From a virus, in UHGV virus genome UHGV-0351052: a stretch of 64,000 bases of DNA; one strand, written 5' to 3'. The translations under genes were made by a program, and so were the position numbers. The notes beneath the pieces are model-generated. The model did not search any database. It saw nothing but the letters and a program-made list of their open reading frames with translations, and was not told where the DNA came from. Position 1 is the first letter of the stretch. The number at the start of each line of letters is the position of its first letter. Below, in pieces: positions 54,795 to 57,414 of the stretch.

Positions 54795-54827
54795 TTGTAT
54801 AGTACCATGGAAGGACAAGGATGTAAA
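54795..54827 (-). promoter_or_regulatory. T4-type early promoter
   Basis: gtatagtacc -10 region, gtaaac 54822-54827. Confidence 0.55.
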
Positions 54828-54962
54828 CCGTTTTGTGAAAAAAATTTTTAAAAAGTTTTAGGGAATTCTAGGGCAGGGAGGGGTAATTAAAAGATAGGAT
54901 AATATATTATAAAGGGTAGAAACTAAATGATACCTAGAGAGGTCCAGAAAGGCCTAGATACC

Positions 54963-54989
54963 AAAAAGCCCCAACCTTTCGGTCGGGGC
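54963..54989 (-). terminator. strong intrinsic terminator ending the tRNA/stable-RNA unit
   Basis: minus strand reads GCCCCGACC-GAAA-GGUUGGGGC followed by UUUUU. Confidence 0.7.
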
Positions 54990-55300
54990 TAAGCCTTGCG
55001 GCAACCTTGTCGGGGTTCCACCTGCTAAGGCAAGTGTTTGTACGAAACGCCGGGATTCGAACCCGGTTATTAAGTAGTTGACGCTACTCAATATTTTTAA
55101 AAGGCCATATCTCGACTATATCCGAACGTTCCGTCAAAAACGCTACTCGGCTTACGGCAAAGATATTTCCTCGAATCGATAATTCGGTGCGCCGTTTCTG
55201 CTGTGATATAAGTGGACATTAGCAAAACATAAAGATTTATTAATGCCAGTCCTTAAACAGGGAACATCAGTCCGACGACTTACCGGTAGCGACCCGGTTT
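54990..55300 (-). ncRNA. putative stable RNA region (T4 rnaC/rnaD species 1 and 2 equivalents)
   Basis: GC-rich, ORF-poor stretch with tRNA-like T-arm element cccgggttcgaatcccgg, downstream of tRNA-Arg and upstream of strong terminator. Confidence 0.35.
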
Positions 55301-55301
55301 C

Positions 55302-55652
55302 TTAATATTCTTTTAAAGAATCAATATATTCACGGCGTTTACGCCACAAATCAATTGCTTCATACGCGGATTCAGCATTTCGAATTGGTCGGCATTTATG
55401 TAAAGACTTATGATTTTGATATTGTGTAGATAACGGAATTGTATCTAAAAGGTCTTTACGATCAAAATATTCGTAACCATCTAAACCAAATGAACGATTT
55501 TTAAGAAATTGCCAATGACCATATTCGTTTTCGACATAAACATAATCTGCATGCTGATAAAGCAAATTAATTACACGTTCAGAAATAACAGTATCATTAT
55601 GATTAAAATAGAATGTTAAATCATGAACTACTAAATAAACATTACCTTTCAT
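55302..55652 (-). CDS. hypothetical protein (about 117 aa)
   Basis: ORF 55302-55700 trimmed to Met with GAGGAAA Shine-Dalgarno so as not to overlap tRNA-Arg. Confidence 0.45.
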   Translation of the reverse strand: MKGNVYLVVHDLTFYFNHNDTVISERVINLLYQHADYVYVENEYGHWQFLKNRSFGLDGYEYFDRKDLLDTIPLSTQYQNHKSLHKCRPIRNAESAYEAIDLWRKRREYIDSLKEY

Positions 55653-55670: not shown

Positions 55671-55747
<77 letters not shown>

Positions 55748-56457: not shown

Positions 56458-56529
56458 TGGCCCTGGGTGGAATTGAACCACCATCTGGCGATTATGAGTC
56501 GCTTGCTTGAACCTTCCAGCTACAGGGCC
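56458..56529 (-). tRNA. tRNA-Ile (anticodon CAU, Ile2-type)
   Basis: Hand-folded; anticodon loop CUCAUAA; last tRNA of the T4 order Gln-Leu-Gly-Pro-Ser-Thr-Ile. Confidence 0.7.
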
Positions 56530-56535
56530 TTGATA

Positions 56536-56608
56536 TGCTGATTGACGGAATCGAACCGCCGACGTCCTCATTACAAGTGAGGTGCTCTACCTACTGAGCT
56601 AAATCAGC
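56536..56608 (-). tRNA. tRNA-Thr (anticodon UGU)
   Basis: Hand-folded: acceptor GCUGAUU, anticodon loop CUUGUAA, T-arm GGCGG-UUCGAUU-CCGUC. Confidence 0.8.
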
Positions 56609-56615
56609 GAAATTA

Positions 56616-56702
56616 CGGAGGCGATAGGATTTGAACCTATGAGTCGCCGGAGCGACTGCCGGTTTTCAAGACCGGTGCATTAAACCACTCTGCCACGCCT
56701 CC
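56616..56702 (-). tRNA. tRNA-Ser (anticodon UGA), long variable arm
   Basis: Hand-folded: acceptor GGAGGCG, anticodon loop CUUGAAA, long extra arm. Confidence 0.8.
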
Positions 56703-56704
56703 AG

Positions 56705-56778
56705 TCTCCGTGGCAGGATTTGAACCTACGACATTCTGCTCCCAAAGCAGACGCTCTACCAAACTGAGCTACACGGAG
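56705..56778 (-). tRNA. tRNA-Pro (anticodon UGG)
   Basis: Hand-folded: acceptor CUCCGUG, anticodon loop UUUGGGA. Confidence 0.8.
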
Positions 56779-56790
56779 TAAATTAAATTT

Positions 56791-56863
<73 letters not shown>

Positions 56864-56868
56864 AAATT

Positions 56869-56955
56869 TGGTACGAGAAGTGGGACTCGAACCCACAAGG
56901 AAATCATTCCGCAGCATTTTAAGTGCTGTGCCTTTACCAATTTGACCATTCTCGC
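56869..56955 (-). tRNA. tRNA-Leu (anticodon UAA), long variable arm, CCA encoded
   Basis: Hand-folded: acceptor GCGAGAA, anticodon loop CUUAAAA. Confidence 0.8.
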
Positions 56956-56956
56956 G

Positions 56957-57029
56957 CTGGGAATAAAGGACTCGAACCTTTGCATCTAGCAGTCAAAGTG
57001 CTATGCCTTACCAACTTGGCTAATTCCCA
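56957..57029 (-). tRNA. tRNA-Gln (anticodon UUG)
   Basis: Hand-folded: acceptor UGGGAAU, anticodon loop CUUUGAC; separated by 1 nt from tRNA-Leu. Confidence 0.8.
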
Positions 57030-57126: not shown

Positions 57127-57414
57127 TTACCATTTATGATAATACATATTTACGATGCATTCAAGACCCAAAGGATTCTTGAAAATATCATATTCAAGAG
57201 GACCTTTTTCTGTTTCGATAAAGAAATCAAAATTTACTGTATTAAATTTACGTTCTTCCTTCACTAATTTAACTTGAGAAGATGAACGGTCAATGTAAAC
57301 CTTTTCAACTTCAAAACATGTTAAAATGCCATAATCATCAATCAAGGCTTTAGCTGCTTCTTGATCATATTTATATCCATTTTCAATGGATGATACTTTA
57401 GCATAAAGAATCAT
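57127..57414 (-). CDS. hypothetical protein (95 aa)
   Basis: ORF track. Confidence 0.5.
   Translation of the reverse strand: MILYAKVSSIENGYKYDQEAAKALIDDYGILTCFEVEKVYIDRSSSQVKLVKEERKFNTVNFDFFIETEKGPLEYDIFKNPLGLECIVNMYYHKW

Follow-up and report, generated by a model that had tools for sequence, protein, structure and literature searches.

Besides eight tRNAs, the tRNA cluster of phage T4 encodes two further small RNAs, known as species 1 (rnaC) and species 2 (rnaD). All of these RNAs are reported to derive from one primary transcript of ~1.75 kb, which starts from a middle promoter upstream of the cluster and ends after the species I gene (PMC2330249). During T4 infection, both RNAs were detected by RNA-seq, and RNAC was also detected by Northern blot (PMC9697503). 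Their function was called unknown in 2010, 2022, and 2025 (PMC3014915, PMC9697503, PMC12685909), in agreement with a sequence-only reading of the locus studied here, which had described it as poorly understood. In the T4 annotation (NC_000866; T4s001/T4s002 = rnaC/rnaD), rnaC occupies positions 70908–71046 and rnaD positions 71053–71171, and tRNA-Arg is located at 71173–71247. The locus described here is already known, as it holds the T4 species 1 and 2 RNAs, and since these are textbook T4 biology, their presence in a T4-like genome is expected. What we add is the family-wide conservation of these RNAs, a covariation-tested fold of rnaC with a probable kissing loop, and the modularity of rnaD; these results are of modest, specialist interest, and together they make the question of rnaC and rnaD function somewhat more testable. 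The two RNAs are among the oldest known orphan RNAs, and the fold, the putative loop–loop contact, and the lineages that lack rnaC provide handles for experiments.

Outside T4, the closest described systems are RNAs that share with rnaC either a tRNA-like structure or a place in a tRNA transcript. The tmRNA (SsrA) is a known non-tRNA substrate of RNase P that has a tRNA-like structure. Hartmann et al. (1995, cited in PMC11143913) reportedly found that the C4 antisense RNAs of P1 and P7 and the CI antisense RNA of P4 are cut out of longer transcripts by RNase P, which acts via a tRNA-like stem. These antisense RNAs act through hairpin loops, and the loops of C4 pair with an mRNA target. The bacterial Y-RNA-like YrlA RNAs, some of which are phage-encoded, are modular and consist of a tRNA-like part and a long helix; in these RNAs, the Ro-binding stem is made up of the two ends, and the tRNA-like part lies inside. 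Finally, 3′ETS-leuZ of E. coli is a functional RNA that originates from the 3′-terminal part of a tRNA transcript and is released by tRNA processing.

Gene order, trailer and terminator of the locus

The window, i.e., the whole stretch of 64,000 nucleotides of viral DNA that was analyzed, contains eight tRNAs as identified by ARAGORN and Rfam. The tRNAs for Gln, Leu, Gly, Pro, Ser, and Thr as well as a CAU tRNA are located at 56458–57029, and tRNA-Arg(UCU), the last tRNA of the operon, is located at 55671–55747. A search with a 431-nt query around the region of interest (54963–55300) matched 764 phage records, nearly all of which are from coliphages and their relatives, with 90–99% identity. 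The locus is the tRNA region of a Tequatrovirus (T4-like) genome, and all of its genes, along with the RNAs and structural elements described below, are on the minus strand.

Alignment to NC_000866 places an orthologue of rnaD (T4 species 2 RNA, 120 nt) at 55186–55305 and an orthologue of rnaC (T4 species 1 RNA, 139 nt, tRNA-like) at 55041–55179, the latter being recovered by a covariance model as well. The two are separated by a 6-nt spacer (GAAUUA, 55180–55185; AAAUUA in T4). The fit to the species 1 and 2 RNAs that had been suggested from the letters was thus borne out. The rnaC orthologue is identical to T4 rnaC at 137 of its 139 bases, end to end. The rnaD orthologue shares 86% identity with its T4 counterpart over 118 nt and 94–100% with that of RB68-type phages; relative to T4, there is near identity over the first 47 nt and the last 22 nt, the center has diverged, and the central hairpin differs from that of T4 rnaD. 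The 83 nt that follow rnaC, including its trailer, are 96% identical to T4. The same stretch is annotated as rnaC/rnaD in the close relatives RB68, Kha5h, and RB3. T4 and the window agree in gene order, strand, 6-nt spacer, trailer, and terminator.

The two arrangements differ upstream of rnaD. In T4, rnaD starts 1 nt after tRNA-Arg, whereas here, as in RB68, a 116-aa ORF (351 nt; 55302–55652) that is absent in T4 lies between the two genes. This ORF matches phrog_3355, has no Pfam match, and extends with its stop codon into the first bases of rnaD. The sequence-only reading had placed the region downstream of tRNA-Arg; this is correct insofar as the region lies 3′ of that gene, but the ORF separates them, so the two do not adjoin directly. 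Because the adjacency to tRNA-Arg is a trait of the T4 arrangement and not of rnaD itself, the intervening 351-nt ORF leaves the orthology unaffected. It does imply that the 5′ end of rnaD must be made differently here than in T4.

Downstream of rnaC is a conserved 50-nt 3′ trailer (54991–55040), in which folding predicts three small hairpins (55019–55036, 55003–55017, and 54993–55002). Among the Tequatrovirus-type loci compared, most show 94–100% identity in the trailer (85% in one); the trailer exceeds rnaD in conservation and persists where rnaC is deleted. An antiterminator role of the duplicated trailer motif CCCCGAC...AAGGUUG was considered and dropped, as the variation was too low for a test. 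The trailer is followed by an intrinsic terminator (54962–54990). It consists of the hairpin AGCCCCGACC-GAAA-GGUUGGGGCU at 54967–54990, with 10 pairs of which 7 are G-C, and of UUUUU at 54962–54966, right after the hairpin, just as had been read from the minus strand at the outset. Its position is homologous to the end of the T4 tRNA transcript. The next promoter-like site downstream of the terminator is at 54799–54827, and the nearest late-promoter-like sequence, TATAAATA, is at 57368–57375, upstream of tRNA-Gln.

A 353-nt stretch covering the locus folds better than its shuffled versions (z = −4.7); by part, the z-scores are −2.7 for rnaC, −3.7 for the trailer plus terminator, and about −1.0 for rnaD. 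Rfam searches, at the gathering threshold and at E up to 10, yielded no family, and nothing beyond chance-level matches, for rnaC, rnaD, or the trailer. At the level of sequence comparison, these data establish the orthology of both RNAs to their T4 counterparts and the non-coding nature of the region. The best explanation, to which we assign a probability of roughly 85%, is that the region represents the non-coding 3′ end of a phage tRNA operon, which is composed of the rnaD and rnaC orthologues, a conserved trailer, and an intrinsic terminator.

Fold and distribution of rnaC

Relatives of rnaC were collected by distant BLAST and two pattern scans, and the resulting alignment of 23 distinct sequences was used to build a covariance model, R1. 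When run on the window, R1 matched 55041–55179 with 158.6 bits (E = 4e-42) and had no other credible match in the window; the covariance-model search that was proposed along with the sequence-only reading was thus successful with R1, there being no family in Rfam. The rnaC gene is present in at least six genera of the Tevenvirinae (Tequatro-, Karam-, Kanagawa-, Teguna-, Marfa-, and Moonvirus) and also in unclassified phages. Its carriers include Karamvirus PS49, the Kanagawavirus phages CIP9, PEi20, and Kosakonia phage 305, Tegunavirus fHe-Yen9-01, Moonvirus NM4.3, and Klebsiella phage Marfa and its relatives. It mostly resides inside tRNA arrays, 5–8 nt from the flanking tRNAs in at least five genera; for example, in PS49 it is located between tRNA-Trp and tRNA-Gly. 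In genera other than that of T4, it sits mid-array, with neither the terminator nor the trailer. A metagenome scan using the rnaC pattern contributed only four sequences, all near-duplicates, and revealed no further loop variant. Some T4-like phages lack rnaC and retain rnaD and the trailer. In two phage contigs (L098 and L116), rnaD is fused directly to the trailer; in L039, rnaD is present and something else lies downstream. These fusions indicate that rnaC and rnaD are independent modules and that rnaC is dispensable in nature.

The rnaC consensus comprises 43 nested pairs, 24 of which show changes on both sides. Across the alignment, 94% of the cells at these positions are paired, vs 38–48% when the partners are slid by 1–3 columns. 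As shown by this covariation, rnaC is predicted to form a four-way junction with its arms in the order of a tRNA, namely, an acceptor-like stem, a long arm at the position of the D arm, a 10-bp arm at the position of the anticodon arm, and a T arm. The acceptor-like stem (7 bp, nt 2–8 with nt 131–137; 55172–55178 with 55043–55049) contains a pair, nt 4:135, that is A-U in 10 sequences and G-C in 13, and two U-U mismatches of the T4 type that are replaced by U-A and C-G in Tegunavirus. The long arm (nt 9–78; 55102–55171) is an irregular hairpin in which 13 of 20 pairs have changes on both sides; in the Marfa and PEi20 groups, it is made of unrelated sequence that adopts the same hairpin shape. 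A conserved, purine-rich bulge of 3–4 nt (3 nt in this genome) is located five pairs below the apex of the long arm and could act as a hinge. The long arm is followed by a single-stranded linker, UUUAAAAA (nt 79–86; 55094–55101); the A-rich AAAAU at nt 82–87 is nearly invariant in the alignment. Arm 3 (nt 87–112; 55068–55093) is a 10-bp hairpin with changes on both sides in 8 of its 10 pairs. The T arm, CCGGG-UUCGAAU-CCCGG (nt 114–130; 55050–55066), adjoins the 3′ strand of the acceptor-like stem; its five pairs are 100% paired, two of them with changes on both sides, and its loop fits the T-loop consensus of tRNAs in most relatives, the motif having been lost in the cipnine group. This arm is the T-arm-like element that had been noticed, together with other paired segments, in the unaligned sequence.

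Two hairpin loops of this fold, UUGACG at the apex of the long arm (nt 43–48; 55132–55137) and CGUCAA in arm 3 (nt 97–102; 55078–55083), are exact reverse complements, with 6 of 6 pairs in 23/23 sequences. They have changed together twice, to UUGGCG/CGCCAA in the Marfa group (A-U to G-C) and to UUGAUG/CAUCAA in Tegunavirus (C-G to U-A), and three further genera retain the common loop pair. The complementarity ends at the loop edges, such that the flanking bases do not lengthen the helix, and both loops are unpaired in the ensemble of nested structures. Because the loops are exact complements throughout the alignment and changed together, we consider that they probably form a kissing-loop contact, with just two independent co-change events behind this assignment. 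Such a contact would either close one molecule into a compact ring or link two molecules; with a single-stranded linker of ~10 nt between the arms, intramolecular closure appears geometrically possible. There was no mention of a loop–loop contact in rnaC in the literature searched, and the primary papers of the 1970s fall outside that search. We also considered a 12-bp long-range helix arising from a 9-nt repeat, GAGUAGCGU, which was rejected; the first copy of the repeat does not covary with the 3′ strand of arm 3 in other genera, so the complementarity is confined to the loops. Collectively, the compensatory changes across at least six genera, the probable loop–loop contact, and the invariant unpaired bases point to purifying selection on the rnaC RNA itself.

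With tRNAs (RF00005), rnaC shares an acceptor-type stem of 7 bp, a T stem of 5 bp (here with the loop UUCGAAU), and a four-way junction in tRNA arm order, and it resides in tRNA arrays with a tRNA-like spacing to its neighbors. It differs from tRNAs in being 139 nt long, in having no tRNA-sized D and anticodon arms and no encoded CCA (the genome reads A-CAA at the 3′ end, whereas a tRNA would have N-CCA), and in failing both ARAGORN and the Rfam model. As in tmRNA, an acceptor stem formed by the RNA ends lies beside a T arm in rnaC, and the junction gives off a long helix; however, tmRNA has a three-way junction, and rnaC is devoid of a tag reading frame, a pseudoknot ring, a CCA end, and an ARAGORN tmRNA call. 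An in-frame UAAUAA before the T arm had prompted us to consider a tmRNA, which was rejected on the missing ARAGORN call and on the motif not being conserved in relatives. A mimic of the tRNA-Lys anticodon loop (a decoy for anticodon nuclease), prompted by the linker sequence CUUUUAA, was likewise discarded, as other genera conserve only AAAAU and not the U run. YrlA shares with rnaC the modular combination of a tRNA-like part and a long helix, but the ends of rnaC form the acceptor-like stem, and the region has no Rfam match even at E up to 10. Unlike the loops of C4, the two conserved loops of rnaC would pair with each other, and there is no sequence or family relationship between the two RNAs. 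Finally, the region resembles 3′ETS-leuZ in lying between the terminator and the last tRNA gene of the operon; it differs in that no sponge targets were found for it and that rnaC is not terminal in other phage genera.

Modules of rnaD

The rnaD gene encodes a separate module, which consists of a 5′ hairpin and a rod that is closed by a terminal stem and has a freely replaceable center. In the MFE fold, the 5′ hairpin is ACCGG-GUCGCUA-CCGGU (55282–55298), and the 3′ strand of the closing stem (55187–55194) pairs with 55273–55279. A 5′ hairpin of unrelated sequence occupies the same place in four lineages. The closing stem is likewise conserved in these four lineages; a G-C pair in it is changed to C-G in 3 of 20 sequences, which is the sole compensatory pair. 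The conserved motifs of rnaD are AAG-YCGUC, GUUCCCU, and the 3′ CACAGC...GGCGCA; the central 50 nt are hypervariable and have been replaced outright in two sequences (L015 and L018). As this center cannot be aligned, RNAalifold yielded a consensus of 10 pairs only, and the fold of rnaD is thermodynamically unremarkable when compared to shuffled sequences (see above). CIP9, the Marfa group, L022, and L045, all outside Tequatrovirus, have rnaD-like elements downstream of tRNA-His or tRNA-Asn. A loose rnaD pattern was also run on viral contigs; its hits were mostly chance matches and were filtered.

In a 2025 study in which the T4-like phage BW1 was evolved on the host ECOR34, three independent lines shared a single SNP, which is located inside rnaD, and the virulence measure on ECOR34 rose from 0.17 to 0.98 in the lines with this convergent change (PMC12685909). 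A point mutation in rnaD is thus tied to the performance of the phage on a semi-permissive host, which suggests that these RNAs affect host range and is relevant to phage therapy.

Processing, putative function and alternative readings

Based on T4 and on the anatomy of the locus, a single long transcript would cover the tRNAs, a segB-like ORF, tRNA-Arg, the 116-aa ORF, rnaD, and rnaC and would stop at 54962–54990. The small RNAs would then be excised from this transcript by the tRNA-processing enzymes of the host. In rnaC, the 7-bp end stem is contiguous with the 5-bp T stem and its 7-nt loop, an arrangement equivalent to an RNase P-type minihelix. The acceptor/T-arm minihelix is what RNase P recognizes, and the processing of the species 1 and 2 RNAs by RNase P and RNase III is described in the classical T4 literature. 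As the acceptor-like stem of rnaC is stacked on the T arm, RNase P is likely to make the 5′ end of rnaC at this minihelix. The trailer would be removed, and the 3′ end of rnaC would be trimmed by an exonuclease back to the stem.

Tentatively, rnaC may be a non-decoding tRNA mimic that engages a factor recognizing the acceptor and T arm, with both RNAs being dispensable, accessory fitness factors whose effect depends on the host. The loss of rnaC in some phages and of the T-loop motif in the cipnine group would be unexpected if tRNA mimicry were essential. A more far-reaching version, which we regard as speculative and doubtful, is that rnaC founds an uncatalogued, widely conserved RNA family of the Tevenvirinae and, either as a closed, nuclease-resistant tRNA mimic locked by a 6-bp kissing loop or as a dimer, titrates or diverts a host factor that recognizes the acceptor and T arm, and that rnaD is a second, independent modulator of host range. 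In this version, candidates for the host factor would be a tRNA-processing or tRNA-modifying enzyme and a tRNA-directed defense nuclease.

The main rival to a selected function is that both RNAs are functionless by-products that survive only through excision from the precursor and stable folding; rnaC would then be the remnant of a tRNA gene that has decayed, and rnaD would be a structured spacer. Several observations are in line with this possibility, including the deletion of rnaC in phages where rnaD is joined to the trailer, the wholesale replacement of the rnaD center in L015 and L018, and a fold energy of rnaD that is no better than that of shuffled sequences. A degenerate class-II tRNA shape, which ARAGORN detects at nt 46–139 of rnaC in some relatives, fits a tRNA origin, and about 50 years have passed without a function being found (PMC3014915). 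Against it, the structure of rnaC is kept by many compensatory changes in at least six genera, including the probable tertiary loop–loop contact, and some of its single-stranded bases are invariant; this depth of structural conservation argues against neutral by-products. For rnaD, the convergent SNP of the BW1 lines altered host performance (PMC12685909). On balance, we consider it rather unlikely that both RNAs are by-products.

It is less probable still that, much as in the case of 3′ETS-leuZ, the tRNA transcript releases at its 3′ end a trans-acting small RNA or sponge, which would be a regulator and not a tRNA mimic and would use the AAAAU linker, the loops, or the trailer and could bind Hfq. 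A region that closes a tRNA transcript and carries a terminator hairpin plus a U tail would suit such a regulator, as would the invariant unpaired bases of rnaC and a trailer that is better conserved than rnaD and persists in phages that have lost rnaC. However, the analysis identified no target, none of the conserved unpaired stretches exceeds 5–6 nt, and mutual pairing accounts for the two conserved loops. Moreover, the mid-array rnaC of other genera comes without a terminator or trailer, and according to a review, T4 has no characterized trans-acting RNA (PMC3014915).

We further evaluated whether nt 46–139 of rnaC could be a real tRNA with a long variable arm, with the first 45 nt as a leader. 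ARAGORN calls a tRNA-Met, tRNA-Phe, or tRNA-Stop of 94–96 nt at this position in several relatives (L006/L024, L009/L028, and L025), and ACGGAACG (nt 46–53) can pair with the 3′-end CGUUUCGU in a helix that is 89% paired across the alignment. In the genome studied here, however, neither ARAGORN nor Rfam calls a tRNA within 54963–55300, the best match in the Rfam tRNA clan being tRNA-Sec with 16.6 bits vs a threshold of 47. The D and anticodon stems of the proposed tRNA are full of mismatches, and its ‘anticodon’ is different in every lineage. Its acceptor helix (nt 46–53 with nt 131–138) shows no compensatory change and has one pair broken in 11/23 sequences, whereas the competing helices carry many compensatory changes. 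In addition, the annotated mature T4 RNA retains the first 45 nt. The class-II fold was therefore rejected on covariation, a real tRNA at this position is very improbable, and the tRNA shape may be a trace of the tRNA origin of rnaC instead of a conserved structure.

That the region encodes small proteins can be dismissed with near certainty: the 42- and 45-aa ORFs match phrog_24262 and phrog_28391 (E about 1e-32), and most related GenBank records have ‘hypothetical protein’ features over the region. However, a stop codon interrupts the 42-aa frame in T4 as well as in the PEi20 and Marfa groups, and the 45-aa frame, which opens within arm 3 of rnaC and crosses the terminator, has lost its start codon in several genera. 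Furthermore, relatives differ by 1–2-nt indels, and there is no Pfam match for the small ORFs of the region. The longest ORFs within 54963–55300 are 45, 42, and 34 aa, and none is conserved, which upholds the initial impression that convincing ORFs are lacking. As the frames are broken among relatives and the substitutions track base pairing, not codons, these ORF calls are, judging from the alignments, artifacts; the region does coincide with a protein-coding gene in relatives, yet nominally only, through automatic calls whose frames are broken in T4 and other genera. The simplest explanation for the two PHROG families is that they gather these very automatic calls. Among the matches listed, an RNA label for the region appears in only a few of the 764 related records, and there is no Rfam model for either RNA; the locus thus represents a case of mis-annotation, in which many spurious ‘hypothetical protein’ calls have seeded two PHROG families.

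The ORFs around rnaD and rnaC

Between tRNA-Arg and rnaD, the orthologue of T4 species 2 RNA, lies a 116-aa ORF (window 55302-55652, minus strand) that belongs to phrog_3355, a family of unknown function, and that gave no match in a Pfam search. RB68, a close T4-like relative, has a counterpart (RB68_139), and T4 is without it. The stop codon of this ORF overlaps the first bases of rnaD; because the ORF intervenes and overlaps in this way, 3' processing of tRNA-Arg cannot generate the 5' end of rnaD, unlike in T4. Two smaller minus-strand ORFs, one of 45 aa (window 54954-55091; phrog_28391, E about 1e-32) and one of 42 aa (window 55097-55225; phrog_24262, E about 1e-32), extend across rnaD and rnaC, the latter being the orthologue of T4 species 1 RNA. 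Both phrogs look like sets of spurious ORF calls over an RNA gene, and most related GenBank records carry a 'hypothetical protein' in place of rnaC/rnaD.

Possible alternative pairings and predicted limits of the transcription unit

The 3' end of rnaD (GAAACGGCG, window 55190-55198) and rnaC's 3' acceptor strand (CGGCGUUUC, 55044-55052) are complementary at 8 of 9 positions. In the unprocessed precursor, this rnaD segment could rival the 5' strand of rnaC itself as the pairing partner of that acceptor strand. Within rnaC, the 9-mer GAGUAGCGU is present in two copies, at nt 32-40 and nt 91-99. A second repeat, CCCCGAC ... AAGGUUG, has two copies in window 54967-55017 (minus strand): one, AACCCCGACAAGGUUG, belongs to the trailer, and the other supplies both halves of the terminator hairpin. 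Pairing of the trailer copy with the 3' half of the terminator is conceivable and would give an antiterminator-like alternative. Among relatives, variation in this motif is confined to the terminator copy (GAC, UUC or AGC).

A late-promoter-like sequence of the T4 type, TATAAATA, is located about 340 nt upstream of tRNA-Gln (window 57368-57375, minus strand), and a sigma-70-like promoter (window 54799-54827, minus strand; TTTACA, a 17-nt spacer and TACTAT, with TG) lies directly past the terminator and precedes an e.8-like ORF. As predicted elements, the two would mark the limits of the tRNA transcription unit. ARAGORN labelled the CAU-anticodon tRNA at window 56458-56529 (minus strand) 'Met'. 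The T4 reference has a tRNA-Ile at the equivalent place in the gene order, immediately before segB, and this tRNA is probably mislabelled by automatic annotation of T4-like phages.

rnaC loss and further RNA-like elements in related phages

In two viral contigs of T4-like phages, L098 (from a 155,101-bp contig) and L116, rnaC is cleanly missing, and rnaD is followed after 3 nt by the trailer; in a third locus, L039, unrelated sequence lies 3' of rnaD. Judged by sequence, all three are natural rnaC knock-outs.

Kanagawa-, Karam- and Marfa-type phages share a conserved element, about 150 nt long (GAGGCAGUCCAGAGAGAUGAG ... GUGUUCUACAUCAAGCUACUUGUUUGUACUCUCUGGACCCGGA), directly upstream of a tRNA-Met; it spans 1264-1428 in L004 and recurs in L005, L006, L008, L009, L011-L013, L022, L023, L027 and L029. 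This element is absent from the window and has no match in Rfam; the motif UGUUCCC is common to it and rnaD. Downstream of rnaC, L004 (about 1650-1790) and L008 (about 1570-1710) carry a tRNA-like stretch of about 130 nt, whose 3' end consists of a T-arm-like GUAGG-UUCGAGC-CCUAU and then an acceptor-like strand. This stretch, called by neither ARAGORN nor Rfam, could be an additional long tRNA-like RNA of those phages.

Directly 3' of the terminator, window 54895-54961 (minus strand) is conserved relative to T4 and includes UCUAGGCCUUUCUGGACC. In Karamvirus-type phages, the near-identical UCUAGGGCUUUUCUGGACC is part of a conserved element that lacks annotation and lies between tRNA-Gln and tRNA-His (L005, 330-440; L022, 125-235), and the window stretch may be a remnant or relative of another small RNA.
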